In this document: positions 9,773-36,186 of the stretch, piece by piece
How the letters are laid out: every line of letters starts with the position of its first letter
How positions within the stretch are numbered: position 1 is the first letter of the stretch
Assembly (NCBI GenBank): GCA_964235895.1
Contig: CAXSCV010000001.1
Location: 20,880-84,879, forward strand
Origin: an uncultured Chthoniobacterales bacterium
GTDB taxonomy: Bacteria > Verrucomicrobiota > Verrucomicrobiia > Chthoniobacterales > UBA10450
Length of the DNA: 64,000 nt
Direction: 5' to 3'
Notes under the pieces: model-generated
Told to the model about the DNA's origin: nothing
The model's input: the letters and a program-made list of their open reading frames with translations, nothing else
Database searches by the model: none
Position numbers and translations under genes: made by a program

Positions 9773-12700
9773 AACACGTTTTCGAACATCCGCCCGAAAC
9801 CACCAGCGGCCGTCAATATTGGCGGAGCGTCGGCGAGCTAAGCGACACGCCGGAATTTCGTGGCTGGCTCGAGCGCGAATTTCCCGCCGGCGCCGCGCAA
9901 TTGGAAGGCGACGAATGGTCGCGCCGCGGTTTCTTGAAATTGATGGGCGCGTCGATGGCGCTGGCCGGTCTCGGCATGAGCAGTTGTCGCCGGCCGGAGA
10001 TGCATCTGGTTCCGTTTTCCAAGAGCGTCGAGTGGGCCATTCCGGGCAAGCCTCTCTATTATGCGACGGCGATGCCGCGCCGCACAGGCGCCTTGCCGCT
10101 GGTCGTCTCAACGGTCGACGGCCGCCCGATTAAAATCGAAGGCAACCCGCTTCATCCGGCGAGCGGCGGAGCGACCGACGCATTCGCGCAAGCGTCCGTG
10201 CTCGATCTTTACGATCCGACGCGCTCGAAGCGTTTCGTGCAAAACGGCAAGACAAGCGATCGTGAAACCTTCGAAAAATATCTGGCCGATTTGCGGCCGC
10301 GATTGGCCGCGGAGGGCGGCGCGGGTTTCGCTGTTCTCGCGGAGGAAACGCTTTCGCCGACGCGTGAGCGTTTGCGCGCGCAACTCGAAAAAGCGCTGCC
10401 GCGCATGCGCTGGTGTCAGTACGATCCGCTGCTGAGCGACGCGCAGAATTTCGGAACGCAAATTAGCTTCGGCGACAATTCGCGGCTCGTGCCGCGCTTC
10501 GATCGCGCGGATGTGGTGCTCTCGTTAGGCGCGGATTTTCTGGATTGCGGCGAAGGCGACATCGCTTCTTCGCGCGCCTTCTCCTCGCGGCGCCGGCTGA
10601 CTTCCTCGAAGGACACGATGAACCGCCTCTACGTGGTCGAGAATCATTACACACTGACCGGTGCGATGGCCGATCATCGGCTGCGCGTCCCGGCGAGTCA
10701 GATTCCTGCTTTCACGCGCGCGCTCGCGGGAAAAATCGCCGCCGCCACGCAAAGCGCGGAGCTTGGTTCGGTCATCGCCACTCTCCAACCGCAGCCCGGG
10801 ACGATGCAGTTCGACGATAAATGGATGACGGAATGCGCGAACGATTTAATCGCGAAATCCGGGGCAAGTTTGGTCGTGCCCGGACCACATCAGCCGGTCG
10901 TGGTGCAATTGATGGCCTACGGGATCAACGTCGCGCTGAAAAATGTCGGCGCCACATTACTCGTTAGGGAATTTCCGCGGAATCCGCGCACGAACAGCAT
11001 CCTGCAATTGGCCACGGAAATAAGCGCCGGCCGGATCAAGCAGCTTTTCATTCTCGGTGGCGACCCTGTTTATAATGCGCCGTGCGGCCTGGCTGAAGAT
11101 CGCGAAACGAAGCAGATGCTCGATTGGTCCGATCTGCAGAAGAAGGTGCCCGAAGTCGTGCGCCTCGGTTATTATGAAGATGCGACTTCGGCGCTGAGTC
11201 AGTGGCACGTGCCGGCCGCACATTACCTGGAATCCTGGGGCGACGGGCTCACTTCCGAGGGCGCATATCTGACGATTCAACCGATGATCCTGCCGCTCTT
11301 CGGCGGCGTTTCGGATCTCGAGGTGCTGAACGGTTTGCTGGCCGGCCCGAAAATCGACGGACCGGAATTAGTGCAGGAAACTTTTCGCGCGTCCGCGCCT
11401 CCGGGCGATTTCGCGACCGCGTGGTCGCAGCTTTTGCGCGACGGTTTCGCGACGCATCTTCCACAAAACGATCGGCCGCCGAAGTTCAACTCGAATGCCG
11501 CGGGCGGAATCGCGCACAACTTGTGGTCGTCCGCGCCGGCGCCCACGGCTGATTCTCCCGAGGTCGTGCTCGTGCGCAGTTATGCGGTCGATGACGGTCG
11601 TTACGCGAACAATGGCTGGCTCCAGGAAATGCCGGACCCGATCACGAAACTGACTTGGGACAACGCGGCGCTGATCAGTCCCGCGTATGCGAAACATTTG
11701 AATGTGACCAGTGGCGACCTGCTGCAAATCACCGTCATGGAATCGGCGCTGGGCGCGAATCAGAAACCGTTGCAGCGGCAGTTGGTCATCGCGGCCTTAA
11801 TCGAACCGGGACACGTGGACAATTCGGTCACAGTCTCGTTAGGCTACGGGCGTAACCTCGGAACGAGCGGCGCGCTGCCGTATGCGGGCGCGGCTTCGGG
11901 TGATAATCCTTCGGCCGGCGATGGCGCTGGATTCAACGGCTACCTGTTGCGCACGACCAGCAATCCGCATTTTATCGTCGCCGATGGCAAAGGCGTGACC
12001 GGCGTGAGGGTGGCGAAAGCGGGCGGCACTTATGTGCTGGCGACCACGCAGGAACATTGGAGCATCGAGGGCCGCGGGCTGGTGCGGGAAGCGACGCTCG
12101 ATCGTTATCGCGCGAAGCCGGATTTCGTCGAAGACATCGCGGGCGACGACGAATTGCCACCGCGTTTGCCGACCATCTACAGCCATCCGCCGTTGAACGC
12201 GCCGCAGCAATGGGGCATGTCGGTCGACCTGAATGTCTGCACCGGTTGCAGCGCCTGCGTCATCGCCTGCCAAGCGGAAAACAACATTCCGATTGTCGGA
12301 AAATTGCAGGTCACGCACGGGCGCGCAATGCACTGGATGCGGATCGATCGCTATTACGCGAGCGATAAAAAGTTCAACCAGGATCGCGGGCAATATCCGG
12401 AAAATCCCGAGATCATTCACGAGCCGATGATGTGCCAGCATTGCGAGAACGCGCCGTGCGAGACGGTCTGTCCGGTGAACGCGACTGTGCACAGCGAAGA
12501 CGGCCTCAACGTCATGGCTTACAACCGCTGCATCGGCACGCGCTATTGCGCGAACAACTGCCCATTCAAAGTGCGCCGGTTTAATTTCTTCGATTACAAT
12601 CAGCGGCCGGTCGGCAAGAAAAAGGTCGCGGGCGCGGTCGGCGTTTATCAAGAATATCTTGGGCCGCTCACGAAAAAAGGTGCGCCAGATACGACGAAGT

Positions 12701-13149
12701 TGCAGAAGAATCCGAACGTGACCGTGCGCATGCGCGGCGTGATGGAGAAGTGCACTTATTGCGTGCAGCGGATCGAGGAAGCGAAGATCGCCGCGCATGT
12801 CAAAGCCGGCGCATCGGACAAAACGCTCATCGCGCGCGACTCATTTACCAGCGCTTGCGCACAGGCTTGTCCGACGGAAGCGATCGTCTTTGGCGATATC
12901 GCCGATCCAGAAACTCGCGTCTCGAAGTTGAAAGCGCAGGAACGGAATTATCGCCTGCTCGCGTATCTCAATGTGAACACGCGCACGAGTTATCTCGCGC
13001 GCATTCGCAATCCGAATCCGAAAATGCCGGACGCGAAATACATCGGCGTCGCGAGTTTGCAGCCCGCGGGTCAGCACGAGGAAAAGGGCGAGCATAATTT
13101 CAACGAGCATGACCAGGGCACCTTGCATCCGACGGAGGCGCGGCCATGA
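9769..13149 (+). CDS. actB: Alternative complex III subunit ActB (molybdopterin-oxidoreductase-like plus Fe-S domains, Tat signal)
   Basis: Tat motif [20 protein letters not shown]-terminal ferredoxin-like Cys clusters ([38 protein letters not shown]). The ATG at 9769 overlaps the actA stop (ATGA). Confidence 0.9.
10521..10530 (+). repeat. Copy of over-represented 10-mer CTCGTTAGGC
   Basis: Exact match in actB. Read as S-L-G. Confidence 0.9.
11835..11844 (+). repeat. Copy of over-represented 10-mer CTCGTTAGGC
   Basis: Exact match in actB. Read as S-L-G. Confidence 0.9.
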
Positions 13150-13378: not shown

Positions 13379-13450
13379 CTTCACACGTGCGATGACATGC
13401 GTGACTCGGAATGCGAGGACGCGTTCGATACGGGGCCAGATAACGGAGAG

Positions 13451-14923
13451 ATGGCGGTCATGAACGGCGCGACCACTGCACCCGATGTGATTCAAGGCGA
13501 GGCTTCGTCCTCGGTTGAGCGGCCGCTCGCGCGCGTGCCATTGGTCCTGAACAAGCGCAATTTCAACTGGATCACCGAACGCATCGCAGGGGTGATTGAA
13601 GGTCCGGCGCCACGCTGGTGGTGGGTCGCGTTCGCGCTCACTTCGATGGTTGCGGCGATCGGCCTCTTCTGCCTCGGCTATCAAATTTCCACTGGCGTCG
13701 GCACATGGGGATTGAATCATCCCGTCGGTTGGGCCTGGGACATCACCAACTTCGTTTTCTGGATCGGTATCGGACACGCCGGCACTTTGATTTCGGCGAT
13801 TCTCTTTTTGCTTCGCCAAAAATGGCGCACGTCCATCAACCGTTCCGCGGAAGCGATGACGCTTTTCGCGGTCATTTGTGCGGCCATTTTCCCGGGCGTG
13901 CACGTGGGCCGCGTTTGGATGGCGTGGTTCTTGGCGCCGTTGCCTAACAACTACGGCATCTGGCCAAATTTCCGCAGCCCGCTCTTGTGGGACGTCTTTG
14001 CGGTCTCGACTTACTTCACCGTTTCCGTGCTCTTTTGGTACACTGGATTAATCCCGGATCTCGGGACGTTGCGCGATCGCGCGACGACCAAGATCAAGAA
14101 GTTGCTCTACGGAATTTTCGCGCTCGGCTGGCGCGGCTCGAATCGCAACTGGCGCCATTACGAAATGGCTTACCTCTTGTTAGCCGGCCTTTCCACACCG
14201 CTGGTTTTGTCGGTGCATAGCGTTGTCTCCTTCGACTTCGCGACCTCCGTGATTCCGACCTGGCACACGACGATTTTCCCACCCTACTTTGTCGCGGGCG
14301 CGATCTTCGGCGGATTCGCCATGGTCCTGACGCTGCTCATTCCGGCGCGCGCCATTTACGGGCTGCAAGACATCATCACGCCGCAACACATCGACAAAAT
14401 GGCTAAGATCATTTTGTTAACCGGCTCGATCGTCGGCTACGCCTACGCCATGGAATTTTTCGTCGCCTGGTACAGCGGCAATACCTACGAGCGTTACGCG
14501 TTCTACAATCGCGTGCTCGGTCCTTACTGGTGGTACTGGTGGGTCGGCATGCTTTTCTGCAACTCGGTTGCGCCGCAGTTGATGTGGTTCAAAAAACTGC
14601 GCTTCAACATTTACGTCGTCTACTTCGTCTGCATGTGCGTGAACGCCGGCATGTGGTTCGAGCGTTTCATCATCATCGTCGGTGGAATTCATCGCGATTT
14701 CCTGCCCTCATCCTGGGGCATGTTTTATCCGACGTGGGTCGATATCTGGACCTTCGTTGGCACCTTTGGAATTTTCCTTTCGCTCTTCCTTCTTTTCATC
14801 CGTTTCCTTCCGATGATCGCCATGTCGGAAGTGAAAATTGTTCTGCCGGAAGCTGATCCGCATTTTGGCGCGACCGCGGCCGAACATCATCCAGTCGCGG
14901 CTGGCGGAAAGGAGCGCAATTGA
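13451..14923 (+). CDS. actC: Alternative complex III subunit ActC (NrfD/PsrC-like polytopic membrane quinol-binding subunit)
   Basis: Polytopic membrane protein with NrfD-like sequence in the conserved operon position. The start is taken at MAVMNGATT (13451); the ORF track start at 13397 lies just after the repeat element. Confidence 0.85.
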
Positions 14924-15474
14924 GAACGCCTTCCGGAAATAAAGTCTACGGAATGGGCGCGGAATATCCGAGCGCGGCCGCATTATATGAAGCGGCCAAA
15001 CGCGTGCGCGACGCTGGGTTCAAACGCTGGGATGTGCATTCGCCATTTCCCATTCACGGAATGGATGACGCGATGGGCTTGGGCAAATCGTGGCTGAGCG
15101 CGGTCGTGCTTTGCGGCGGAATCACGGGACTTTTGACTGCGGTGGTGCTGGAGTTTGGGCCCTCGACCTTTATTTATCCGTTGGTCGTTCACGGAAAGCC
15201 GTTCGATTGGCGGACGGTGCCAGCGTTTTTCCCGATCATGTTTGAGCTGACGATTTTGTTCTCGGCCTTTTTCGCGTTCTTCGCGGTCTTGATCATGAAC
15301 GGATTGCCGCGCTGGTATCATCCGGTCTTTAACTGGGAACGATTCAGTCGCGCGACGAACGACGGATTTTTTCTCGTGATCGAAGCGCGTGATCCGCGTT
15401 TTACGGAAACCGAAGCGCAACAGCTTTTAGAGCAAACCGGCGGTCAGCATCTGACCGTCATTCACGAAGATTAG
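14920..15474 (+). CDS. actD: Alternative complex III subunit ActD (DUF3341-like)
   Basis: [44 protein letters not shown] is typical of ActD, followed by two TM helices. The TTG start overlaps the actC stop; an ATG at 14953 is an alternative. Confidence 0.8.
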
Positions 15475-15475
15475 T

Positions 15476-16177
15476 ATGTTGCGCGGCTTCTTCCTCATCT
15501 TCGTTCTCACCGGAATCGCGCTGGTGGCGTTTCTTGGTTTTCGCGGCCAGCGCAGCACTGGTTCGCCGATCGAATTATTTCCCGACATGGTCCGCCAACC
15601 AAAAGTGCGCGCACAGGCGCCGCTGGGATTTTTTGCCGATGACCGAGGCGCGCGCGTGCCGGTGAACGGAACGGTGCCGATCGGTTACGACATGCCGGAG
15701 GCATCGGCCAAAGCGAGTCCCGGTGCGGCGGCCGCGCCGAGCAGTTATCGCGAAGATCATCCGCGGGTTTCTTTCAGCGCTGGGACTGATTACGTCGACA
15801 CCGGCAAGATGGGTGCGAATTGGGGAACGGGCATTCCGTTGGAAGTGACGCCGCAATTAATGGCGCGCGGCGAACAGCGCTTCAATATCAACTGCGCGGT
15901 TTGTCATGGCGGGGCCGCGGCCGGGAACGGCATCACGAAACAATTTGGCCTAACGACGGTGGTCAGCTTGCAGGACGACCGCATTCGCAGCATGGCCGAC
16001 GGCGAGATTTTCAACACGATCACGCACGGCAAAAACACCATGATGGCCTACGGCCCGAACGTCACGGTGAACGATCGCTGGGCGATCATCACTTATCTGC
16101 GCGCTTTGCAGCGAAGCCAGAATTCCACGATCGCGGATGTGCCGCCGGAAGCGCGCGCAGGATTGGAGAAGCCATGA
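15476..16177 (+). CDS. actE: Alternative complex III subunit ActE (monoheme cytochrome c)
   Basis: N-terminal anchor, a single CAVCHG haem motif, and the conserved operon position. Confidence 0.85.
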   Translation: MLRGFFLIFVLTGIALVAFLGFRGQRSTGSPIELFPDMVRQPKVRAQAPLGFFADDRGARVPVNGTVPIGYDMPEASAKASPGAAAAPSSYREDHPRVSFSAGTDYVDTGKMGANWGTGIPLEVTPQLMARGEQRFNINCAVCHGGAAAGNGITKQFGLTTVVSLQDDRIRSMADGEIFNTITHGKNTMMAYGPNVTVNDRWAIITYLRALQRSQNSTIADVPPEARAGLEKP

Positions 16178-17376
16178 GCGAGCGATCTCAAGTCGAGCCA
16201 AAACCGGAAGGCGAATATTTCGAGAACAGCCGGTTCTCGGGTCTATCGCTTTTGCTGGCCATTGTCGCGCTGGTCGGTCTGGCGCTGAGCGCGCTCGGCG
16301 CGATTTTTTGGCCGCAACAATTTGCCTACTCGTGGCTCTTTGGCTGGGCCTTTTGTTTTACGCTCTGCGCCGGCGCTTATTTTTGGATCATCGTCCATCA
16401 CGCGGTCGACGCCGAATGGTCGGTGGTGGTGCGTCGGCAACAGGAAAACATTGCGATGCTGTTGCCGCTGGTGGCGTTGTTCTTTATCCCGGTCTTTTTC
16501 TTCCGCCATTATCTCTACGAATGGATGATCATTCCGCGCGGCGCCGATCAATTGCTCGATAGCAAACGGCTTTACTTGAACCTGCCGTTTTGGGTCGTGC
16601 GCACGATTTTCTTTTTCTGCTACTTCACGCTCTTCGCTTTTCTTTTTCGCAAACTTTCCGTCGGCCAGGATCGCGACGGTAATCCGGCGCGGACTTTGTC
16701 GATGCGCCGGCTGGCCTTCATCGGCCTGCCGCTCTTCGCGCTTTCGCTGACCTTTGGGGCCTACGATTGGTTCGCGGGAATGAACTACAAATGGTTCTCG
16801 ACCATGTGGGGCGTTTATATTTTCGCCGGCGCTTGTGGCAGCTCGATGGCGCTGATTGTTTTGGTGACCGCGGCGCTGCGCAAAGCCGGTTATTTGCAGG
16901 AAGTCGTCAACGTCGAGCACTTCCACATCATGGGAAAATGGCTTCTCGCTTTCACCGTTTTCTGGGCCTACATCGGCTTCAGCCAATACATGCTCATTTG
17001 GTACGCCAACATCCCGGAGGAGACGCAGTATTTCATTCTGCGAAACACGGAATCGTGGAATTTGATGAGCTTGCTCCTGGTCATCGGACGCTTCTTTATT
17101 CCTTTCGCCCTGCTGCTCATGCGCTCGAGCAAGACGAAGGTCAGCCGGCTCTGCAAAATCGCGGGATGGATCATCTTCATGCAGGCGCTCGATATGTATG
17201 TGGTCGTGATGCCGGAACTGCATCGCGCTGGTGTTCATCTCAGTTTGCTCGATTTCGGTCCGATCATTGGCATCGCCGCCTCACTCGCGTTCGTTTATCT
17301 GCGCTTGCTCGGTAAGACCTCGATTTTTCCCGTGCGCGATCCGCGCCTCCTGGAATCACTTCGGATTTTGAATTAA
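16174..17376 (+). CDS. actF: Alternative complex III subunit ActF (second polytopic membrane subunit)
   Basis: The internal ATG at 16174 (MSERSQVEPK...) overlaps the actE stop (ATGA). About 400 aa, multi-TM. The N-terminal extension of listed ORF 15820..17376 overlaps actE and is R/H-rich, i.e. non-coding-like. Confidence 0.8.
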   Translation: MSERSQVEPKPEGEYFENSRFSGLSLLLAIVALVGLALSALGAIFWPQQFAYSWLFGWAFCFTLCAGAYFWIIVHHAVDAEWSVVVRRQQENIAMLLPLVALFFIPVFFFRHYLYEWMIIPRGADQLLDSKRLYLNLPFWVVRTIFFFCYFTLFAFLFRKLSVGQDRDGNPARTLSMRRLAFIGLPLFALSLTFGAYDWFAGMNYKWFSTMWGVYIFAGACGSSMALIVLVTAALRKAGYLQEVVNVEHFHIMGKWLLAFTVFWAYIGFSQYMLIWYANIPEETQYFILRNTESWNLMSLLLVIGRFFIPFALLLMRSSKTKVSRLCKIAGWIIFMQALDMYVVVMPELHRAGVHLSLLDFGPIIGIAASLAFVYLRLLGKTSIFPVRDPRLLESLRILN

Positions 17377-17379
17377 CCC

Positions 17380-18033
17380 GTGGCCGCCGACGAAACATCT
17401 CTCAACTTCGAACAGCCGCGCTCCATGTTTGGAACATGGCTGGGCGTCATTCTTCTCTTTGGATTTTTCGCGCTGGTCGTGTGGGTGGTGATGAGCTTGA
17501 TGCCGCGGGGCAACGATTACGAACAGAAGCGCGCGACGGCGCGTTTTGAAAAACTCAAAACCGTGCGCGAAGAAGCGAATGGCGCGTTGAACGGCTACGC
17601 CTGGATTGATAAAACGAAAGGAAGCGTGCGGGTGCCGATTGCGCGCGCGATGGAGTTGAGCGTTCCGGAGTTGGCCAGGAAAAAACCAGCGCCGGCCAAT
17701 CCGATCGGCGATTCCGCTTCGCATCCAGGACCGCAGGCGGCCGCGACGGTGACCGCTGCGCCCGCGCCCAGCGCAGCGATCAGCCCGGCTCCGAATTCCA
17801 CGCCGGCGGCAACCGAAGTTGAAGGAGTTAACTCCGAGAACCGCGGCCAAAAAGTAGGCGAAAATAATCCTCCGAACGCGCCCGCCGGAACGCAGCCCGG
17901 CGCAAATGCTACGCCGGTCGCGACGCCGCCGGCCGGCGCGAATCAACCGCATCCCGGTCCTGGCCAACCGACCGCGACGCCGATGCAAGTTCCGCCGGGA
18001 ACACCGATCCCAGTCCCTGGAAAAAAACCATGA
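17380..18033 (+). CDS. Hypothetical single-TM protein with an Ala/Pro-rich C-terminal tail
   Basis: GTG start 4 nt after the actF stop. One TM helix (WLGVILLFGFFALVVWVVMSL) followed by a low-complexity P/A/T tail. Its stop overlaps the next start (ATGA). Confidence 0.6.
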   Translation: MAADETSLNFEQPRSMFGTWLGVILLFGFFALVVWVVMSLMPRGNDYEQKRATARFEKLKTVREEANGALNGYAWIDKTKGSVRVPIARAMELSVPELARKKPAPANPIGDSASHPGPQAAATVTAAPAPSAAISPAPNSTPAATEVEGVNSENRGQKVGENNPPNAPAGTQPGANATPVATPPAGANQPHPGPGQPTATPMQVPPGTPIPVPGKKP

Positions 18034-19535
18034 CGCCCGCTGAGTTACCAATGATTCCGCCGAGCACCGCTCTCGTTAGTCGAGGCGAAATCGACGTGAC
18101 TGGCGATGATTTCGACCAGGTGGAACGAGCCTTGATCGACGCTTCGACGCGCGTGCCGGTCCTGATGTTTTATACGTCGGCGATCGTCTGGCTCCTGCTC
18201 GGAACTCTGCTGGCCCTGCTGAATTCTTTTAAGCTACACATGCCGGATCTCCTTGGCGGCGTGAGCTTTTTGACCTGGGGCCGCATTCATCCGGCTTACA
18301 TGGACACGATGCTTTACGGCTGGGCTTCGATGGCTGGCGTTGGCACTTCCATTTGGTTAATGGCCCGTCTTTCGCGAACGACTTTGCGGCATCCCTTGTT
18401 GCTCGTGGCCGGCGCGGCTTTTTGGAATCTCGGCGTGCTTCTCGGCGTGGGTGGGATTCTCGTCGGGAGCAGCACCGGTTATGAATGGCTCGAGTTTCCG
18501 AACTATGCCGCGCTCGTTCTTTTCGTGGCTTACTCGCTTGTGATGTCGTGGGCCATCCTGATGTTCCGTTTCCGCCGCGGCGGCCACATTTACATCACGC
18601 AATGGTACTTGTTAGGCGCGTTCCTCTGGTTCCCTTGGCTTTACGGCGCCGCGCAAATCATGCTTTTCGTCACGCCGGTGCAAGGCGTCATGCAAGCGGC
18701 GGTGAACTGGTGGTTCGCAAATAATCTTCTCTTCCTTTGGTTTGGCGCGATCGCGCTCGGCACCGCTTATTACATGATTCCGAAAGTGATCGGCCGGCCG
18801 GTTTACAGTTATCATTTGGCGGCGATTGGATTCTGGACCTATGCGTTCTTCGCCAGCTGGACGGGAATGCAACGCCTGGTCGATGGGCCGTTCCCGGCTT
18901 GGATGATCACGGCCAGCATCGCCGCGGCCATTCTCACGATCATTCCCGTCGCGACGGTCGGACTGAATCATCACATGACCATGCGCGGTTATTTTTCCTT
19001 AATGCGATATAGCCCGACGCTGCGCTTCACCGTTTTCGGCGCGATCGCTTACACCATTTTCAGTCTTGTCGGCGTTTTGATTTCCTTGCGATCGATTGCC
19101 AGTTACGTGCATTTCACCGAGGCGAGCGTGGCTTACACGCACCTTGGGATTTATGCTTTCTTCACCATGATCATGTTCGGCTCGATGTATTACATTGTGC
19201 CGCGGTTGGTCGGTCGCGAATGGCGTTACGCCAGCCTGATTAAACTTCACTTCTGGGCCTCGGCCTACGGGATCATGTTATTGGTTCTGATGCTCTTTGT
19301 CGGTGGCGTCGTGCAAGGATCGAGCCTGAACGATTCCGCGCTTTCCTTTAGCGAAACGACGCAATCCGTCCTGCCTTATTTGCGCGGCCGAAGCGTCGCG
19401 TGCCTTTTGCTCACGGCCGCCCACGGCATCTTTGCTTTCCACTTTGGCTTGATGCTCCTTGGTCTGGGTCGCACCGCCAGCGTTCCGACATTTTTGAACC
19501 CGCAGGAAGAGGAGGCGCTCGCATCGCACATATGA
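18030..19535 (+). CDS. CcoN-like haem-copper-oxidase subunit I homolog with a non-canonical (apparently ligand-deficient) active site
   Basis: Clear similarity to cbb3 CcoN (YYMIPK..GRPVYSY, LRF, MYYIVPRLVGRE). However, the canonical motifs WWYGHN, GPHH and GHVHxG read WWFANN, GMQR and AYTHLG here. Confidence 0.8.
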   Translation: MTPAELPMIPPSTALVSRGEIDVTGDDFDQVERALIDASTRVPVLMFYTSAIVWLLLGTLLALLNSFKLHMPDLLGGVSFLTWGRIHPAYMDTMLYGWASMAGVGTSIWLMARLSRTTLRHPLLLVAGAAFWNLGVLLGVGGILVGSSTGYEWLEFPNYAALVLFVAYSLVMSWAILMFRFRRGGHIYITQWYLLGAFLWFPWLYGAAQIMLFVTPVQGVMQAAVNWWFANNLLFLWFGAIALGTAYYMIPKVIGRPVYSYHLAAIGFWTYAFFASWTGMQRLVDGPFPAWMITASIAAAILTIIPVATVGLNHHMTMRGYFSLMRYSPTLRFTVFGAIAYTIFSLVGVLISLRSIASYVHFTEASVAYTHLGIYAFFTMIMFGSMYYIVPRLVGREWRYASLIKLHFWASAYGIMLLVLMLFVGGVVQGSSLNDSALSFSETTQSVLPYLRGRSVACLLLTAAHGIFAFHFGLMLLGLGRTASVPTFLNPQEEEALASHI

Positions 19536-20509
19536 AGGGTTTCCTTCCGCTCATCCTCGGCATCTTCGGAACCTTTGCCTTTTCCTGGCTTGGCCTAACC
19601 GTTGTTCCGAACTCCCAGATCGGTCATCTCGATCCACAAACGGACGAGGACGGCAACGATCCTTATCCCGCGCCGAAATCCGGGATGGCCGAGCGCGGCC
19701 GGCAGATTTATGCGGCGAACGGTTGCGTCTATTGTCACAGCCAACAGGTACGCGCGGATTACGCCGCCTCGGATATCGAGCGGAAATGGGGCGATCGCCG
19801 AAGCGCCCCGCGCGATTACATTTTCGATCGTCCGACGTTGCTCGGAAAAATGCGCATGGGTCCGGACCTTTCGAACGTCGGCAAGCGCGCACCCTCAGTC
19901 GACGAAAACGCGCCGACTCCCGATGCGACAGCGATCGCTCCGGCCGCGCCCGCGCCTGTGGCCAGCGCACCAACAAATTCTGCGCCCGCTCCCACAACCG
20001 TCGCCCCTGCCGAAGCAGCGCCGGCTGGTGCGAGAGCTCCCGCGGCCAGCGCTTCGACTGCCGTTGCCGTCACCACCGCCAGCGCAAAAACCGCGACGGC
20101 AATGTCAGCTCCATCGGCCGCCCCCACCGCGGCTAGCCAGGCTTCCGCGCCCGGGGTCAGCGCGCAGACAGCCGAAGTTTCCTCGGTTGGAAAGAATGGC
20201 GCACCGTTGCCTTACTCGGCCGCGTGGCATCATCTCCACCTTTACGCGCCGCGAACGGTCTCTCCGGATTCCAATATGCCGGCCTATCGTTTTCTTTATG
20301 AGAACCGGCGCGTCGGCGGTCAGCGCGCTGCCGATGCGGTCGCGCTCAGCGGCGAAGACGCTCCCGCCGCGGGTTGGGAAATTGTCCCGACTTACGACGC
20401 GAAATGTCTCGTGGCGTATCTCATGTCGCTCGATCAGTCACATGCTTTGAAGGAAGTGAAATCAACCGCGCCCGCTTCGCCGCCGGCGCCTGGAAAGGCG
20501 GTCAAATGA
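19532..20509 (+). CDS. CcoO-like monoheme cytochrome c subunit carrying a ~105-aa Ala/Pro-rich insertion
   Basis: GCVYCHSQQVR, GPDLSNVG and WHHLHLYAPRTVSPDSNMPAY match FixO/CcoO motifs. The low-complexity insertion lies between them. The ATG at 19532 overlaps the upstream stop (ATGA). Confidence 0.8.
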   Translation: MKGFLPLILGIFGTFAFSWLGLTVVPNSQIGHLDPQTDEDGNDPYPAPKSGMAERGRQIYAANGCVYCHSQQVRADYAASDIERKWGDRRSAPRDYIFDRPTLLGKMRMGPDLSNVGKRAPSVDENAPTPDATAIAPAAPAPVASAPTNSAPAPTTVAPAEAAPAGARAPAASASTAVAVTTASAKTATAMSAPSAAPTAASQASAPGVSAQTAEVSSVGKNGAPLPYSAAWHHLHLYAPRTVSPDSNMPAYRFLYENRRVGGQRAADAVALSGEDAPAAGWEIVPTYDAKCLVAYLMSLDQSHALKEVKSTAPASPPAPGKAVK

Positions 20510-21258
20510 ACGAGCGCACTCCTTCACCTGATCATCGGGCGCGCCAGGGAATGGATTATGGCGAAACCGAAGACGTGCAGAAAACGCACGCCGCGATTCA
20601 GCGCGAAAAAACCGAACCGCGCGCCGGTCTTGAGCCGCTTTCCATTTGGCTCATCGCCGTCTATGGGCTCGCGATTTTCTGCGGCGGCGCATATCTCGGC
20701 CGATACTCCGGCAGCTTCAGCGGCGATGGTTTGGATCCGTTAGGCGGCGCGCCGCGCGCGGCGAAAAACGGCGCTGCGGGCGCGCCCGGTGCGACGCAGG
20801 TTGCCGAGCTCACGCCAGCCGAACGTGGTAAGAAAATCTTCTCCGCCAATTGCGCCACCTGCCACCAGGCCACCGGTCTCGGAGTTGCCGGACAATATCC
20901 ACCGCTCGCTGGATCGGAGTACGTCAACGGCGGAACGCGACGCCTCGGGATGATTGTGCTCAAAGGGCTCGAAGGTCCGGTCACGGTGAAGGGCGCGCAG
21001 TTTGGCGCCGCCGTCATGCAACCGTGGGAGAAGACTTTGACCGACGCGAAAATTTCGGACGTGCTCACTTACATTCGTCAGGAATGGGGAAACAACTCGC
21101 CGGCCGTCTCGCCCGAAGGCATCGCGGCTTTGCGCAAGGATCTCGCCGGACATGCCGCTTCCTTCCACGAACCCGATCTCAAAGCCGTTCCCGAGGATGC
21201 GATGCTTCCCGGTGGCGAGGCCGCGGCTCCTCCGGGTGGCGCTCCACCGAAGCCGTAG
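20506..21258 (+). CDS. Membrane-anchored monoheme cytochrome c
   Basis: Internal ATG at 20506 (MNERTPSP...) overlapping the upstream stop. One TM helix, CATCHQ haem motif, Pro-rich C-terminus. Confidence 0.8.
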   Translation: MNERTPSPDHRARQGMDYGETEDVQKTHAAIQREKTEPRAGLEPLSIWLIAVYGLAIFCGGAYLGRYSGSFSGDGLDPLGGAPRAAKNGAAGAPGATQVAELTPAERGKKIFSANCATCHQATGLGVAGQYPPLAGSEYVNGGTRRLGMIVLKGLEGPVTVKGAQFGAAVMQPWEKTLTDAKISDVLTYIRQEWGNNSPAVSPEGIAALRKDLAGHAASFHEPDLKAVPEDAMLPGGEAAAPPGGAPPKP

Positions 21259-21334: not shown

Positions 21335-22360
21335 ATGCTTACTGCACAGGCGTATTCACTGCTGATGATTCAACACAAAGACCTGGATGATTCCGAAGCC
21401 CGCGAAGTGATCGTCGTCGGCGGCGGGATCGCGGGTTTGTCGGCCGCGATTTATCTCGGGCGCGCCGCGCGTGACACTTTGGTGATCGATTCCGGTCACT
21501 CGATGGCGAAATGGGAACCCGAGGTGCAAAATTATCTCGGCTTTCCGCAAGGCGTTGGCGGGGAAGAGTTGCTCAAGTTTGGCCGCCGACAGGCCAAGCG
21601 TTACTCGGTCGAATTTGCGCGCGACGAAATCAAAAGCGTCTCGAAACGTAAGCGCGGCTTCACGCTGCGCGGCCGGCACCGCAGCTATTGGACGAACCGG
21701 CTTTTGGTCACGACCGGAATTTTTCATCTGCCGCCGAAGATTCCCGGCGTCAAAGAATGCCTCGGGCACAGCATGTTTTTTTGCAAAGACTGCGACGGAT
21801 TCCGTGTCCGCGGAAAACGGATCGCCATCTGCGGCGCGAACGATGAAGCGGTCGAATACGCGCTCGGCATGCTGGCTTATTCAGCCTGCGTGGTCGTGGC
21901 CACGAACTCGGAGAAGCCGCGCTGGAATCGCCGACATGCCAGACTTTTGCGAGAATATGAGATTCCCGTTTACCAAAAGAGAATCACGGGCGTGGATCAT
22001 CGTGGTTGTCAGGTGAGGGGATTGCGTTTGATGGGCGGCGACGAGATTTGCATCGATTATATTTTCACGACGCGCGGCGATATTTTTCACACGCGCCTGG
22101 CAGAGTCGTTAGGCGCGCGACTCGATGTTGATGGCCAGATCGAGGTCGACCATTGCATGCGCACAAATGTTCCGCGGCTTTACGCCGCAGGCTGTGTGAC
22201 GCCGGCAAATTGCCAGATGATCATCGCCGCCGGCCAGGGCGCGGCGGCGGCGCAGGCGATCAATCGCGATCTTTTTCAGGAAAGTTTGAAGACGCGCTCG
22301 CTGCGACGTTTCCGCGAAGTGCAGTTGGTGGAAGAACGAACGGTGCCCGAGATCACATGA
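21335..22360 (+). CDS. FAD/NAD(P)-dependent oxidoreductase, thioredoxin-reductase-like
   Basis: Dinucleotide-binding motif VIVVGGGIAGLSAAIYLGRA and a CKDCDG redox-type CxxC. The start could instead be 21365. Confidence 0.8.
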   Translation: MLTAQAYSLLMIQHKDLDDSEAREVIVVGGGIAGLSAAIYLGRAARDTLVIDSGHSMAKWEPEVQNYLGFPQGVGGEELLKFGRRQAKRYSVEFARDEIKSVSKRKRGFTLRGRHRSYWTNRLLVTTGIFHLPPKIPGVKECLGHSMFFCKDCDGFRVRGKRIAICGANDEAVEYALGMLAYSACVVVATNSEKPRWNRRHARLLREYEIPVYQKRITGVDHRGCQVRGLRLMGGDEICIDYIFTTRGDIFHTRLAESLGARLDVDGQIEVDHCMRTNVPRLYAAGCVTPANCQMIIAAGQGAAAAQAINRDLFQESLKTRSLRRFREVQLVEERTVPEIT

Positions 22361-22685: not shown

Positions 22686-24575
22686 ATGGACGCCTCCACT
22701 GACCTCGCCGCTCACTCTCAGACCGCGCACGATCCGCATCATCATCACGATGAACACGAGCATCACGAGCTCGGCTTTTGGCGAAAATGGGTTTTCTCGA
22801 CCGATCACAAAATGATCGGCATTCAGTACGGCGTGACCGGTTTGGTTTTCCTCTTCTTCGGTTTCTCGCTCATGATGTTGATGCGCTGGCAGCTCGCTTT
22901 CCCGGGCGAATCCCTCCCGATCATCGGTAATGCGCTCGGCCATCTCTTCGGTCCCGGGAGTATGCCGGATGGGAAGATGACGCCGGAATTTTATAACTCG
23001 TTAGGCGCGATGCATGGCACGATCATGATCTTTCTTGGAATCGTCCCGGTCGCCTTCGCCGCCTTCGGCAACTTCGTCGTCCCGCTGCAAATCGGCGCGC
23101 CTGACATGACCTTTCCGAAAATTAACGCCGCCAGTTTTTGGGCGTTTTTCGCCGGCGGCTTGGTCATGCTCTTCAGCTTTTTCGTTCCCGGCGGCGCGGC
23201 CAAAGGCGGCTGGACTTCTTACACGCCACTCGCCGTCATCTCGGATAAAGGCGAAACCTACGGCGCGTTTTTCAATGGCCAGACGCTCTGGCTGGTTGGT
23301 TTTATCTTGCTGATCACCTCGTCGCTCCTCGGCGCGGTCAATTTCATTACCACCATCATTCAGTTGCGCGCCAAAGGACTGACCTGGATGCGCCTGCCGT
23401 TTTTTGTTTGGGCGCAATTCGTGACCGCGTTCCTTTTGTTGCTCGCCTTCCCGCCACTCGAAGCGGCGGTTGTTATGCAACTAATGGATCGCACGGCCGC
23501 GACCAGTTTCTTTATGCCGAGCGGTTTAGTCCTCAACGGCGCGCCGCTTCACATCAGCGGCGGCGGCAGTCCGCTGCTTTGGCAGCATTTGTTTTGGTTC
23601 CTCGGGCATCCGGAAGTTTACGTGCTCATCCTGCCAGGCATGGGCATCGTCGCGGAAGTGATCGCGAACAATTCGCGCAAGCCGCTCTGGGGTTACAAGT
23701 CGTTAGTCTTCTCCGTCCTCGTCCTTGGTTTTCTCTCCTTCATCGTTTGGGCGCACCACATGTGGTTGACCGGAATGGGCACCACGGTCAGCGCATTTTT
23801 TCAAACGACAACGATGATCATCTCGATTCCGTCGGTCATTATTTTAAGCGCATTTTTCATTTCGCTCTGGGGCGGGTCGATTCGATTTACCGTGCCGATG
23901 TTGTTCGCGACCGCCTTCCTTCCGATGTTCGGCATCGGCGGCCTAACGGGCATCCCGCTCGCCTTTAATTCGGCCGATCTTTACCTGCACGACACCTATT
24001 ACGTGATCGCGCATTTCCATTACATCGTCGCGCCGGGAACGATCTTCGCCCTCTTCGCCGGCGTCTATTATTGGTTCCCGAAAGCGACCGGCCGCAAGAT
24101 GAACGACTTCTGGGGCAAGGTGCATTTTTGGCCTTCGCTCATCTGCATGAACGTCATTTTCCTGCCGATGTTTTTGCAGGGCATGCTCGGAATGCATCGC
24201 CGTTGGTACGACGGCGGACAGGGCTGGAATTTAGCGAACGAGAAAGCCTGGGGCGTCTCCGGGTTTCACTGGAACACACCGATTTCCATCGCCGCCTGGT
24301 GCATGGGTTTGGCGCAGATTCCGTTCATCATTAATTTTTTCTACAGCATTCGCTGGGGCCAAAAGGTGAATGACAATCCCTGGGAAGCGACCACGCTCGA
24401 ATGGACCGCGCCATCGCCGCCGCCGCATGGGAATTTCCTCACCCCGCCGGTCGCTTATCGCGGCCCTTACGAATATAGCGTGCCCGGACGCGAAGCTGAT
24501 TTCACCATGCAGAACGATCCGATTCAGCCGAGCGAGCGCGCGCTTCCGCAAACGCCCGAGCCGATCCACGCCTAA
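22686..24575 (+). CDS. ctaD: Cytochrome c oxidase subunit I (A-family, aa3-type)
   Basis: All canonical ligand motifs are present: GAMHGTIM, WFLGHPEVYVLILPG, VWAHHMW, IAHFHYIV. Confidence 0.95.
   Translation: MDASTDLAAHSQTAHDPHHHHDEHEHHELGFWRKWVFSTDHKMIGIQYGVTGLVFLFFGFSLMMLMRWQLAFPGESLPIIGNALGHLFGPGSMPDGKMTPEFYNSLGAMHGTIMIFLGIVPVAFAAFGNFVVPLQIGAPDMTFPKINAASFWAFFAGGLVMLFSFFVPGGAAKGGWTSYTPLAVISDKGETYGAFFNGQTLWLVGFILLITSSLLGAVNFITTIIQLRAKGLTWMRLPFFVWAQFVTAFLLLLAFPPLEAAVVMQLMDRTAATSFFMPSGLVLNGAPLHISGGGSPLLWQHLFWFLGHPEVYVLILPGMGIVAEVIANNSRKPLWGYKSLVFSVLVLGFLSFIVWAHHMWLTGMGTTVSAFFQTTTMIISIPSVIILSAFFISLWGGSIRFTVPMLFATAFLPMFGIGGLTGIPLAFNSADLYLHDTYYVIAHFHYIVAPGTIFALFAGVYYWFPKATGRKMNDFWGKVHFWPSLICMNVIFLPMFLQGMLGMHRRWYDGGQGWNLANEKAWGVSGFHWNTPISIAAWCMGLAQIPFIINFFYSIRWGQKVNDNPWEATTLEWTAPSPPPHGNFLTPPVAYRGPYEYSVPGREADFTMQNDPIQPSERALPQTPEPIHA
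22997..23006 (+). repeat. Copy of over-represented 10-mer CTCGTTAGGC
   Basis: Exact match in ctaD. Read as S-L-G. Confidence 0.9.
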
Positions 24576-24579
24576 CGAG
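24570..24579 (-). repeat. Copy of over-represented 10-mer (GCCTAACGAG on + strand)
   Basis: Exact match. Supplies the Ala-TAA end of ctaD. Confidence 0.9.
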
Positions 24580-24588
24580 TCGTAAGAA

Positions 24589-25464
24589 ATGGAAATTCCC
24601 TACACCGTCGCCTCGCGTCCCGACACGGGACTTTGGAACGCCAAGATCGGCATTTGGCTCTTTCTCGCCTCCGAAGTCATGCTCTTCGGCGGTTTGTTCT
24701 CCGCTTATATTTTTCTCCGGCTCGATGCCGAACCCGGTTTTTGGCCGCATGGGTTATTGAACGTGCCGGTCGGGACGATGAACACGGCGATCCTGATCGC
24801 TTCGTCCGTCACGGTCGTGCTCGCGTGGGCTGCGCTGAAGATGCGCCAGTTCACCAAATACAAAATCTACATGGGCATCACGATCCTCTGCGGCATCCTG
24901 TTCCTCGTGGTGAAGTTGGCCTACGAATGGCCGCAAAAATTCGAGCACTTCGGCGCCTTCATCAAAACCGAAGCGCTCGAGAAGTACGAGCCGCTCTTAG
25001 GGAATCATCACTTACTCGCGGAAGGTTTGCCGCCGCGCGTCGAGATCACGGGACATCTGCATAATCACGAGGCCTTGAACGATCCGAACATCAAGGAATT
25101 CGAAGTCGGGCTCGATCCGATTTACACCGATCCAACCAATCCAAGTATGGATCGGCCGCATTTCCTCTATGTCCCGCCGACGGAAAAGGTGGCGACGATT
25201 GAGAAAGCGGATGTCGAGCGCGCGACCATGTTCCTCCCGACGCACAGCACGTATTTCGCGACCTATTTTACCATCACCGGCCTGCACGGTTTGCACGTGC
25301 TCGGCGGCGTGATCGTCTTCACTTATTTTTGGCTGCCGTTCGGCGCGAATCTCTACAAGCGCAATCCCGAACATCTCGCGAACCGCGTCGAAGTCGCCGG
25401 CTTGTTCTGGCACTTCGTCGACCTGGTTTGGATCTTCGTCTTCCCGCTTTTTTACCTGCTCTAA
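24589..25464 (+). CDS. ctaE: Cytochrome c oxidase subunit III (with a long inserted loop)
   Basis: FATYFTITGLHGLHVLGGVIV and WHFVDLVWIFVFPLFYLL motifs. A ~95-aa hydrophilic insertion lies between TM segments. Confidence 0.85.
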   Translation: MEIPYTVASRPDTGLWNAKIGIWLFLASEVMLFGGLFSAYIFLRLDAEPGFWPHGLLNVPVGTMNTAILIASSVTVVLAWAALKMRQFTKYKIYMGITILCGILFLVVKLAYEWPQKFEHFGAFIKTEALEKYEPLLGNHHLLAEGLPPRVEITGHLHNHEALNDPNIKEFEVGLDPIYTDPTNPSMDRPHFLYVPPTEKVATIEKADVERATMFLPTHSTYFATYFTITGLHGLHVLGGVIVFTYFWLPFGANLYKRNPEHLANRVEVAGLFWHFVDLVWIFVFPLFYLL

Positions 25465-25467
25465 ATC

Positions 25468-25809
25468 ATGAACAATCCGCCCGACGTAACGCAGGATCCG
25501 AGCGAGCACGAACAGTACGCGCACGACGTCGCGCATCATGTGAAGAAGTACATGATGGTCGGCGGCGCGCTTCTCGGCTGCACGGCGCTGACCGTTTTCC
25601 TCTCTTATGTGAACTTCGGCACGCAAAAGGCGAACGTCGCGGTCGCCATGCTGGTTGCGACTTTTAAAGCCGCGCTGGTCGCGGCGATTTTCATGCACTT
25701 GTCGGCCGAGAAAAAATTGATCTATCGCATTCTGGTTTTCACCGGCCTCTTTGTCTTCGCGCTTTTCTGGCTCACCTACCTGGCTTGGTACGATCCGATT
25801 CACCACTGA
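25468..25809 (+). CDS. Prokaryotic cytochrome c oxidase subunit IV family protein
   Basis: 113 aa with HHVKKYMMVGGALL... and KAALVAAIFMHL patterns typical of bacterial subunit IV, in the position after ctaE. Confidence 0.75.
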   Translation: MNNPPDVTQDPSEHEQYAHDVAHHVKKYMMVGGALLGCTALTVFLSYVNFGTQKANVAVAMLVATFKAALVAAIFMHLSAEKKLIYRILVFTGLFVFALFWLTYLAWYDPIHH

Positions 25810-26018
25810 TGTCGCTCAAGGCTTTCCATTTTGTTTTCATCACCTTCTCCATTCTGCTCGCGCTCGGTTGCGGGTGTTGGTGCGTTTGGATTGACCTCCA
25901 GACCGGCCTTTCCAATTATTTTCTTGGCGCGATTGGATCGTATCTCGCGGCGATCGTTCTCTTCATTTACGGCATGTGGTTTTACCGAAAAATGAAACGG
26001 CTTAGATTGATCACATGA
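25809..26018 (+). CDS. Small hypothetical membrane protein
   Basis: The ATG at 25809 overlaps the upstream stop (TGATG). 69 aa with two TM helices. Confidence 0.5.
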   Translation: MSLKAFHFVFITFSILLALGCGCWCVWIDLQTGLSNYFLGAIGSYLAAIVLFIYGMWFYRKMKRLRLIT

Positions 26019-26275
26019 AAACGCGATTACTGGCAGTTCTTGTTGTCTTCCTCGGCACACAAATCGGACAGGCCATGGCGTGTTCGGTTTGCTTCGGCGC
26101 GGCCGGTTCCAAAGTGAACGATCACATGGCGACCGCCATTTGGGTCTTGTTAGGCGCGGTCATGTCGGTGCTCGGTGGAGTGGGGGCCTTTAGTTTTCAT
26201 CTCTGGCGCCACGCGCAAATGCCGCTCGAGCCGCATCAGGAACTGACCGAGGAAGATTTCGCGGAATATGATTAA
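26015..26275 (+). CDS. Small hypothetical secreted or membrane protein with a CxxC motif
   Basis: 86 aa with a signal-like N-terminus, CSVCFG, one further TM helix and an acidic tail. ATGA overlap with the previous ORF. Confidence 0.5.
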   Translation: MKTRLLAVLVVFLGTQIGQAMACSVCFGAAGSKVNDHMATAIWVLLGAVMSVLGGVGAFSFHLWRHAQMPLEPHQELTEEDFAEYD

Positions 26276-27161
26276 TACGCTCGCGTTGATTAACGAATTT
26301 CTCGGGCAACCGCCGAATGTTTCCGAGCATGGTTTCCAGATCGATCACATCATCGAGTTCTGCCATTGGTTCATGGGCGCACTCTTCGTCGGATGGTCGG
26401 CCTATTTCATTTACGTCCTCTTTCGTTTTCGCAAAGGCCGCCATCCCGTGGCTGATCACGAAGGTGTAAAAAGCGGAATCTCCACGCACCTCGAGTTCGC
26501 CGTCGTCCTCATCGAAGCGGTTTTACTCGTCGGCTTCGCGGTTCCTTTATGGGCGAAACGCGTCAATCAATTTCCCGCCGATAAAGATGCCATCCTCGTG
26601 CACGCGATTGGCCAGCAGTTTAACTGGAACTTCCATATGCCCGGACCGGATGGCCAGTTCGGCAAACGCAGCATCGACCTCGTGACGAACTCAAATCCGC
26701 TCGGGCTCGATCCAAATGATCCGGCGGGGAAAGACGATCTCGTGGTGCTCGGCGAATTGCACGTGCCGGTCGATCGACCGGTGATCATCGAAGTTTCCTC
26801 GAAGGACGTGATTCATAATTTCGATTTGCCGAGCATGCGCATCGCGCAGGATGCGATTCCCGGACAGATCATTCCGATGTGGTTCCAGCCAATCAAGACC
26901 GGCAGTTACGAAGTGGTTTGCGGACAACTTTGCGGACTTGGGCATTACGGAATGAAAGGCATGCTCGTCGTCGACACGCCGGCTGATTATCAGGCGTGGT
27001 TGAAAGAACGCGTCGAGCTTTCCGGCACACAGACCGCTCCGGCGCCGCTCGATCGTCCGCCCGGCGAACCGGGTCCTGGCCCGACGCCCGGCACCGTTCC
27101 ACCCCCGGGTGGACCGAAGACGACCAACCCGGAAGCGAGCATTCCGCCGGGGACGCACTAA
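26268..27161 (+). CDS. coxB: Cytochrome c oxidase subunit II (CuA domain)
   Basis: Two N-terminal TM helices, VIHNFDLPS and CGQLCGLGHYGM (CuA ligands), and a Pro-rich C-terminal tail. Confidence 0.9.
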   Translation: MINTLALINEFLGQPPNVSEHGFQIDHIIEFCHWFMGALFVGWSAYFIYVLFRFRKGRHPVADHEGVKSGISTHLEFAVVLIEAVLLVGFAVPLWAKRVNQFPADKDAILVHAIGQQFNWNFHMPGPDGQFGKRSIDLVTNSNPLGLDPNDPAGKDDLVVLGELHVPVDRPVIIEVSSKDVIHNFDLPSMRIAQDAIPGQIIPMWFQPIKTGSYEVVCGQLCGLGHYGMKGMLVVDTPADYQAWLKERVELSGTQTAPAPLDRPPGEPGPGPTPGTVPPPGGPKTTNPEASIPPGTH

Positions 27162-27170
27162 AAGCGATCA

Positions 27171-27180
27171 CTCGTTAGGC
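27171..27180 (+). repeat. Copy of over-represented 10-mer CTCGTTAGGC
   Basis: Exact match, intergenic, 10 nt after the coxB stop. Confidence 0.9.
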
Positions 27181-27269
27181 CGCGCCGGTGGCGCAAAGCA
27201 TTTTTGCGAAAGACGAACCGCAAAACCTTTCCGCGTGTCGCGCGTTTCCGCTTCGCTATATTGGAAGCG

Positions 27270-36083: not shown

Positions 36084-36186
36084 CGTGGCAGGTATCCTGC
36101 TCGAATTATTATGCTGCGGGGCATCGGCTAAAATCCCCAGCCGCGATTGACAGATACAGAATGAATGTCCGAACGTTAAAGAGAAG

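Follow-up and report, generated by a model that had tools for sequence, protein, structure and literature searches.

A homologue of cbb3 oxidase subunit I lacking nearly all haem and copper ligands is conserved beside alternative complex III in Chthoniobacterales

The haem–copper oxidase (HCO) superfamily has been divided by Murali et al. (2024; PMC11214002) into twelve families, none of which is described there as lacking all of its active-site histidines. The first family found to replace even one of them was gNOR, with a single Asp, and the families NOD, gNOR and putative N2O reductase have no cross-linked tyrosine and are inferred not to reduce O2 (PMC11214002). The presence of a cbb3 oxidase, the C-family enzyme, is routinely taken as a sign of high-affinity respiration under microaerobic conditions (PMC8407424), and reviews of verrucomicrobial respiration take genes adjacent to those of alternative complex III (ACIII) for a cbb3 oxidase, as in Methylacidiphilum and the Opitutaceae (PMC8498564). 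Here, we describe a 501-residue homologue of cbb3 subunit I (CcoN), termed CcoN′, which is encoded directly after the ACIII genes in a 64,000-nucleotide stretch of DNA from an uncultured Chthoniobacterales bacterium (assembly GCA_964235895.1, contig CAXSCV010000001.1, positions 20,880 to 84,879). This whole stretch is referred to below as the window. CcoN′ has lost five of the six invariant histidines of C-family oxidases together with the cross-linked tyrosine, and it is almost certainly not an oxidase.

The product of the gene matches the Pfam family COX1 (PF00115) with 182.7 bits (E = 1.5e-53). Among solved chains it matches CcoN of Pseudomonas stutzeri (3mk7_A; phmmer, 5.4e-39), and HMMER alignments give 23–25% identity to the solved CcoN chains. 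The protein misses the ccoN equivalog TIGR00780 of NCBIfam, scoring 167.9 bits against a cut-off of 583.15. It shares with P. stutzeri CcoN (3MK7 chain A) the fold of 12 transmembrane helices and the loop motifs YYxxPK..GRPxYSY, PxLRF and YYxVP..GRE, in agreement with a first reading of the DNA made by a model from the letters and their open reading frames (the sequence-only reading), which had recognised the resemblance to cbb3 CcoN. As in cbb3 operons, CcoN′ is followed by a FixO-type mono-haem subunit (CcoO′) and a further c-type cytochrome. Unlike the P. stutzeri cbb3 oxidase, the third subunit is mono-haem rather than di-haem and there are no ccoGHIS genes nearby; FixS, FixI, FixG and FixH were not found in the window.

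A closer comparison is given by the ACIII-linked cbb3 oxidase of the planctomycete Telmatocola sphagniphila (WP_213498146, locus L081), which is 47% identical to CcoN′ over 483 residues. Its operon has the same skeleton as the window (actA–F, an ActG-like open reading frame (ORF), CcoN, FixO and a mono-haem cytochrome c), and the two subunits have in common the sequence GLNHHMTM and an N-terminal IDxSxR. The Telmatocola locus differs in having FixS directly upstream and a P-type (FixI-like) ATPase directly downstream, neither of which is found in the window, and its CcoN keeps all seven catalytic residues, of which only H371 is left in CcoN′. Another canonical relative has no ACIII linkage.

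The ligand columns were located in three independent ways: by HMMER, with three CcoN chains of solved structure; by MAFFT, with 272 family sequences; and by BLASTP, with Telmatocola CcoN, where the alignment (47% identity) is ungapped at every ligand motif. The three alignments are concordant at all seven catalytic columns. In P. stutzeri numbering, the CuB ligands H207, H257 and H258 correspond to N231, Q281 and R282 of CcoN′, the cross-linked tyrosine of helix VII (Y251) to A275 and the proximal histidine of the high-spin haem b3 (H345) to Y369. Of the two ligands of the low-spin haem b, H60 is replaced by Y90 and H347 is kept as H371, the sole remaining ligand. The CuB triad is thus absent from CcoN′ in all three alignments, and the bis-His pair of the low-spin haem is incomplete, with one of two present. 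Every coordinate that the sequence-only reading had given for these substitutions is correct; we also looked for histidines at all of the canonical ligand positions, and both the alignments and the structural model described below show the ligands to be absent. Two residues of the cbb3 proton path are likewise changed in the HMMER alignment to CcoN (S240 to A264 and H243 to G267). The substitutions are not sequencing errors, since they are common to an identical database protein (P0001) and to one of 91% identity from another assembly (P0002). The identical database protein is 494 residues long, and the true start codon of CcoN′ may therefore be M8.

CcoN′ contains 13 histidines. Judged by the helix positions in an AlphaFold2 (AF2) model, only H70, H87, H361 and H371 are placed at the level of the cofactors, in the periplasmic half of the protein, and no other set of His, Cys or Met residues was found in the periplasmic half of the helices from the sequence and the AF2 topology. 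There is therefore no alternative ligand set. The sequence-only reading had drawn attention to H87, three residues before Y90, and to an N-H-H at 313–315. Both were correctly located, but the N-H-H is not unusual, as had been supposed: it belongs to the GLNHHMTM sequence that is present unchanged in the canonical Telmatocola oxidase, and the alignment and the topology of the model put it at the cytoplasmic end of transmembrane helix 8, far from the cofactor level. It is therefore an ancestral motif of the lineage and not a replacement metal site. H87 is unlikely to be a haem ligand that has migrated. It occurs together with Q90 and Q371 in one relative (P0039) and together with H90 in two loci (L015 and L075), and for this reason looks like a polymorphism rather than a compensating ligand.

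The AF2 model, built on an alignment of 94 sequences, has a predicted local distance difference test score (pLDDT) of 92.8 and a predicted template modelling score (pTM) of 0.92. Foldseek superposes it on 3mk7_A with template modelling (TM) scores of 0.85/0.92 and a root-mean-square deviation of 2.1 Å. CcoN chains match the model at 1e-22 and NorB at 1e-11, by fold only; A- and B-family subunits, as well as NorB, give far weaker fold matches than P. stutzeri CcoN. By the COX1 match and this confident superposition, CcoN′ is an intact 12-helix member of the C-family branch. Assignment to the nitric oxide reductases (NOR) or to the putative N2O-reductase branch of the HCOs was rejected: the nearest relative is CcoN, not NorB, and the histidines that ligate Fe_B in the NOR type are absent in the alignment to CcoN. 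CcoN′ is like NOD, gNOR and the putative N2O reductase in being an HCO member without the cross-linked tyrosine. In these families, however, the haem ligands are retained and no more than one of the three active-site histidines is missing, whereas the CcoN′ family has lost all three with no conserved replacement.

The 120 closest database proteins (76–100% identity to CcoN′) come from Chthoniobacterales and other Verrucomicrobiota metagenome-assembled genomes. A scan of genomes gave 80 species-level loci, all within this close clade (Chthoniobacterales/Udaeobacter, many of them Candidatus Udaeobacter). For 77 of them, ratios of non-synonymous to synonymous substitution (dN/dS) were calculated by the pairwise Nei–Gojobori method (NG86; 2435 pairs, median dS 1.4). 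The ORF of ccoN′ is intact in all 77 species and its median dN/dS is 0.10. By this pairwise measure the selection on the gene is indistinguishable from that on ActC (0.088) and ActD (0.10) and near that on CtaD (0.073). A ratio of 0.10 indicates strong purifying selection and not the relaxed, pseudogene-like selection by which the sequence-only reading would have been refuted. In the close clade 76 polar residues are invariant. At the emptied ligand positions, N231 and R282 are invariant among the 120 close homologues, Q281 is found in 118 of them, Y369 is nearly invariant, as are H314 and H315, and the A275 column is Ala or Ser throughout the clade.

The two low-spin haem positions behave differently. 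Among the 120 close homologues, H90 and H371 are both kept in 110 and both lost in eight, and the combination of Y90 with H371 is limited to the lineage of the window itself (three sequences). When the 77 species-level loci are counted, one of which is gapped at position 90, both histidines are kept in 55 of 76, one is kept in 11 and neither in 10. Thus, at least one low-spin ligand is missing from 21 of 76 loci (28%), the window among them. The statement that only the low-spin haem histidine is kept therefore holds for H371 in the window, but it is not typical of the clade, where both ligands are present in most close relatives and absent from many others. Selection persists after the loss, dN/dS being still 0.135 in the lineages that have neither ligand, and from these two observations it follows that the low-spin haem b is dispensable for whatever conserves CcoN′. 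With H371 alone surviving, opposite Y90, the CcoN′ of the window, as far as can be judged from its residues, probably lacks haem altogether or holds no more than a single haem b with abnormal ligation.

The loss of ligands is not confined to the close clade. HMMER was run exhaustively against 1.84 billion cluster representatives (clustered at 50% identity) and gave 476 matches at E ≤ 1e-30. The best 150 of these 476 have 32–86% identity to CcoN′, the highest values being those of fragments of close homologues, and score 244–518 bits as against 138 bits for P. stutzeri CcoN. The canonical ligand set is present in 6 of these 150 and absent in 144. When a profile from the most distant subclade was used as the seed of a further search, 117 more full-length members were recovered, none of them canonical, and overall 241 of 246 full-length sequences are ligand-poor. 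The sequence-only reading had called for such a survey among ACIII-linked homologues of the Planctomycetes–Verrucomicrobia–Chlamydiae (PVC) group. The family persists down to 30–35% identity with its synteny kept. Across it, nearly every kind of residue can be found in the former ligand columns, most often Ala, Gly, Gln or Pro. At position 90, Ala, Gly or Phe predominates, and at position 371, Gln or Leu. The residues that are invariant family-wide are Trp, Gly, Pro and Arg, and the family alignments contain no invariant His, Cys or Met. An acidic residue (D/E) at the H207 column co-occurs with R/K at the H345 column in the 241 ligand-poor members (counts 52/14/42/133, odds ratio 11.8, Fisher p = 9e-15, uncorrected for shared ancestry), and the two may form a buried ion pair that fills the emptied pocket. 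A few of the distant members bear the names Opitutales, Verrucomicrobiales, Verrucomicrobiae and, in one case, 'Candidatus Acidoferrum', a label that is probably acidobacterial. We rate the CcoN′ family as a pseudoenzyme branch of the C-family.

Every source name carried by relatives of CcoN′ in the databases is 'cbb3-type cytochrome c oxidase subunit I', the label that the sequence-only reading had expected of automatic annotation. Two of the loci are binned elsewhere, as Candidatus Dormiibacterota and Bryobacteraceae (L060 and L068); their CcoN′ copies are 75–77% identical to that of the window, and they are probably misbinned Chthoniobacterales contigs.

The association of CcoN′ with ACIII is as constant as the loss of its ligands. 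In the window, ATGA overlaps join actG to ccoN′ at 18030, ccoN′ to ccoO′ at 19532 and ccoO′ to the ccoP-like gene (ccoP′) at 20506, so that the coupling of ccoN′ on both sides, as first read, is verified. The gene order actABCDEFG–CcoN′–CcoO′–mono-haem cytochrome c holds without exception across the 80 close loci that are long enough for it to be seen. Ten distant ligand-less loci, taken one at a time outside the genome scan, all have the order actABCDEFG–CcoN′–CcoO′–cytochrome c. What follows the module, on the other hand, varies. A full A-family oxidase cluster is found in the window and in loci L082 and L088, COX2 alone without COX1 in L087 (12814–13659), and unrelated genes in L085, L089, L090 and the contig of P0421. 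L084 (10001–21096) has, directly after the module, a genuine ccoNO fusion, FixP, ccoG, a DsbD_2 protein and a CcoI-type ATPase, so that dead and live cbb3 genes stand side by side downstream of ACIII. Because the downstream neighbour varies in this way, the constant unit is ACIII with CcoN′O′P′ and not the module with a particular oxidase.

The ORF between actF and ccoN′, which had been noted only as the one that follows actF, was rightly placed and can now be identified as ActG (Table 1). Its 217-residue product has one transmembrane helix, the motif YAWID..G.VRVPIARAMEL and a Pro/Ala-rich tail, and the profile match between the syntenic small ORFs and ActG of 8k9e runs through YG..D..G.V.IPI.RAM.L. 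ActG is present in the loci long enough to show the region, with two misses by tblastn. The long C-terminal tail of the window protein is absent from its relatives or of other length in them (79–217 residues in all).

The two cytochromes that accompany CcoN′ have kept their haem-binding motifs. CcoO′, which had been described as an apparently intact CcoO-like haem c subunit, has both the CVYCH motif and the SNMPAY segment with the Met ligand. CxxCH is present in 84 of 84 relatives and the Met motif in 70 of 78 by pattern match, with two more by eye; among the remainder, five ORFs are disrupted after the haem motif, probably by assembly frameshifts, and one is truly without the motif. This last is the CcoO′ of L082 (11501–12286), which keeps CxxCH and has lost the His...Met ligand segment. 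In the window, residues ~125–225 of CcoO′ form a low-complexity insert of ~100 residues rich in Ala, Pro and Thr, which divides the FixO domain between the haem and Met motifs; the ORF ranges from ~215 to 550 residues in length among relatives. Among 73 relatives, the CcoP-like subunit always carries a single CxxCH.

How might a protein without an active site be conserved so strongly? The explanation that we favour begins with an ancestral PVC operon in which actABCDEFG was joined to a working cbb3 oxidase (ccoN, ccoO and a mono-haem cytochrome c, with FixS and FixI), as is still the case in Telmatocola. In one descendant lineage, CcoN would have lost CuB, the cross-linked tyrosine and the high-spin haem and later, repeatedly, the low-spin haem as well. 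The 12-helix protein would have been kept under strong selection with its two c-type cytochrome partners. Its most probable role is structural, as a platform in the membrane where the CcoO-like and CcoP-like subunits could fold and take up their place beside ACIII. In real cbb3 oxidases, CcoO packs on the periplasmic face of CcoN (3MK7), and a dead CcoN′ would for this reason still be needed by CcoO′. Electrons from ActA/ActE would be relayed through the c-haems to the acceptor of the organism, which in the window would be the aa3 oxidase encoded just downstream. We infer that CcoN′O′P′ is physically associated with ACIII, that it serves as a relay and that the cofactors are absent.

Direct transfer of electrons from ACIII to an oxidase has precedents in Flavobacterium johnsoniae and Rhodothermus marinus, where it proceeds via an extra membrane-tethered c-haem domain (PMC5928083). 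As in the window, oxidase genes follow the ACIII genes in these organisms. The extra haem of F. johnsoniae and R. marinus is, however, a domain of ActA or of oxidase subunit II, whereas in the window the extra haems would come from two separate cytochromes carried on the dead CcoN′. No COX1-fold chain was found in solved ACIII structures by sequence and fold searches of the PDB. A conceptual likeness, in an unrelated fold and complex, is offered by Core 1 and Core 2 of mitochondrial complex III, members of the mitochondrial processing peptidase (MPP) family that were kept as structural subunits after loss of the active site.

That CcoN′ is a repurposed, non-oxidase member of the HCO superfamily, as the sequence-only reading had suggested, is supported by the absence of the ligands, the purifying selection and the linkage to ACIII. 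Of the roles then listed, a scaffold or electron-transfer module is favoured and a new catalytic metal site is disfavoured, because the ligand columns are variable and no His, Cys or Met is invariant across the family. In its specific form, we consider it reasonably probable that CcoN′ is a non-catalytic membrane scaffold for a c-haem relay from ACIII. For the broader proposal, that there is a whole, hitherto unrecognised family of fossil cbb3 oxidases which, having lost every cofactor ligand, persisted over hundreds of millions of years as a permanent non-catalytic subunit of an extended ACIII with a two-haem c relay, we see the balance as even. Several observations count against the scaffold proposal. 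In the Chthoniobacterales clade the bis-His low-spin site survives in the majority, and some members may still carry out redox chemistry. The polar or charged residues of the pocket (N231 and R282 invariant, Q281 and Y369 nearly so) could mean a new site rather than a plug, as could the acid/base pairing at the H207 and H345 columns in another subclade. The tie of CcoN′O′P′ to ACIII is drawn from adjacency and ATGA coupling, which is indirect evidence. Finally, the neighbour-joining tree, in which the canonical PVC sequences are basal and all of the ligand-less ones fall in one derived clade, was made by a crude method and only suggests a single origin of the loss.

The first of these points leads to the possibility that CcoN′ is still a redox protein, in which one low-spin haem b, bis-His-ligated in most of the clade and fed by the haem c of CcoO′, serves as an electron buffer or as a branch point toward another acceptor; in the window, the haem would have to be held by His371 and Tyr90, or by His371 and His87 after a shift of one helical turn. 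The retention of H90 with H371 in 110 of 120 close homologues and 55 of 76 species loci, their joint loss in 8 of the 120 and the restriction of the half-state to the window lineage in that set are what would be expected of a functional pair, and CcoO′, whose counterpart feeds haem b in real cbb3 oxidases, has an intact haem c site. On the species-level count, however, half-states are common (11 against 10 double losses), 28% of the species of the clade lack at least one ligand with dN/dS still at 0.13, and H87 behaves as a polymorphism and not as a compensating ligand. Moreover, a haem b without haem b3 and CuB has no known downstream partner, and a haem b does not explain the conservation of the family, in which positions 90 and 371 are mostly not His (Ala/Gly/Phe and Gln/Leu, respectively). 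We regard this alternative as unlikely, and take a similar, slightly more sceptical view of the suggestion that the emptied pocket has been rebuilt from N231, Q281, R282 and Y369 into a proton or ion path, or into a site for another substrate or metal, through which CcoN′ would couple energy in ACIII. These four residues are polar, conserved in the clade and placed inside the membrane core, the other subclade has its own pairing of an acid with Arg/Lys at the H207 and H345 columns, and proton pumping by ACIII is unsettled in the literature (PMC8498564). Family-wide, though, the same columns hold nearly any residue, so that there is no family-wide site; the cbb3 proton path is partly lost (A264 and G267 for S240 and H243), and the co-occurrence statistic makes no correction for shared ancestry.

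A scaffold is to be preferred much more decidedly over the two remaining explanations. That CcoN′ is a working O2 or NO reductase with unconventional metal ligands seems most improbable: the fold and the CcoO partner are intact and the operon is respiratory, yet five of six histidines and the tyrosine are gone, the periplasmic half of the helices has no other set of His, Cys or Met, and the ccoGHIS maturation genes that are present in the canonical relative are absent here. Active-site histidines are conserved in all described HCO families bar the one Asp in gNOR (PMC11214002). It is scarcely credible, in turn, that ccoN′ is a pseudogene in decay whose reading frame happens still to be open. 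In favour of this are the loss of the catalytic residues and, in some lineages, the erosion of the haem b ligands. Against it, the ORF is intact in 77 species with a dN/dS of 0.10 (median dS 1.4), the clade has 76 invariant polar residues, the family extends to 30–35% identity with conserved synteny, and the pLDDT of 92.8 rests on a co-evolving alignment.

The genes of the region are listed in Table 1. The true start of actB is probably an ATG near 9769 that overlaps the stop of actA. Immediately upstream of actA are genes for a protein with the heavy-metal-binding domain HMBD (6406–7905, plus strand) and for a DUF4198 protein (7867–8736, minus strand). Downstream of the module, a Pyr_redox_2 gene is found by tblastn at varying distance in about 20 related loci. 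It is followed in the window by a weak terminator-like hairpin at 22383–22414, apart from which the scan for promoters and terminators was uninformative. The A-family COX1 (CtaD) at 22686 keeps every ligand, as first read, and this A-family enzyme is the only bona fide oxidase of the window. The N-terminal half of COX3 has a sub-threshold match to DUF420 (27.4 bits against a cut-off of 30.5), which may reflect extra helices fused to subunit III. Elsewhere in the window are a tyrosine (phage-type) integrase (35136–36296, minus strand) and a 902-residue ATP-dependent DNA ligase fused to a metallo-beta-lactamase RNA-specificity (RMMBL) domain (60938–63646, minus strand).

Table 1 Genes of the ACIII–CcoN′ region and of the oxidase cluster downstream of it (positions in the window; TAT, twin-arginine translocation)
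Gene or product	Position	Strand	Evidence
actA	9044..9772	+	Pfam Cytochrome_C7 and c3 matches; leads the conserved cluster in related loci
actB, molybdopterin-like and 4Fe-4S subunit	9727..13149	+	Fer4 domains, TAT signal TIGR04519, QrcB/QrcC-like
actC, NrfD-like quinol-binding membrane subunit	13397..14923	+	Pfam NrfD, 4.5e-23
actD	14920..15474	+	Pfam ActD, 4.2e-57
actE, mono-haem cytochrome c	15476..16177	+	Pfam Cytochrome_CBB3 and Cytochrom_C
actF, second NrfD-like membrane subunit	16174..17376	+	phmmer to PDB 6f0k_F ActF, 4.9e-70
actG homologue, 217 residues	17380..18033	+	Profile of 10 syntenic small ORFs to PDB 8k9e_G, E = 4.7e-5
ccoN′, ligand-less homologue of cbb3 subunit I, 501 residues	18030..19535	+	Pfam COX1 PF00115
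CcoO′, FixO-type mono-haem c subunit	19532..20509	+	Pfam FixO, 1.1e-23; CVYCH and His...SNMPAY Met-ligand motif
CcoP-like membrane-anchored mono-haem cytochrome c (CATCH)	20506..21258	+	Pfam Cytochrom_C, 5.2e-14
Pyridine-nucleotide disulphide oxidoreductase	21335..22360	+	Pfam Pyr_redox_2, 2.7e-29
A-family oxidase cluster	22686..29856	+	Pfam
COX1 (CtaD)	22686–24575	+	All ligands: HPEVY (308), AHHMW (357), AHFHY (443)
COX3	24589–25464	+	Pfam
COX4_pro	25468–25809	+	Pfam
COX2	26268–27161	+	Pfam
CtaA	27204–28292	+	Pfam
CtaB	28289–29206	+	Pfam
SCO1	29203–29856	+	Pfam

Full-text searches of the literature found no description of a ligand-less, ACIII-linked CcoN, though an earlier mention is possible. 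If the reading given here is true, this would be the first pseudoenzyme derived from a haem–copper oxidase: a large clade without the active-site histidines, under selection as strong as that on the ACIII subunits, would represent an enzyme turned into a structural subunit. The route of electrons from ACIII to oxidases and the roles of its accessory subunits are unsettled, and the family predicts a new supercomplex architecture. Candidatus Udaeobacter is among the most abundant soil bacteria. The inference of high-affinity, microaerobic respiration from the cbb3 label would be false for Chthoniobacterales/Udaeobacter and for many other lineages, and many annotations of a 'high-affinity cbb3 oxidase', together with the microaerobic lifestyles inferred from them, would be wrong.

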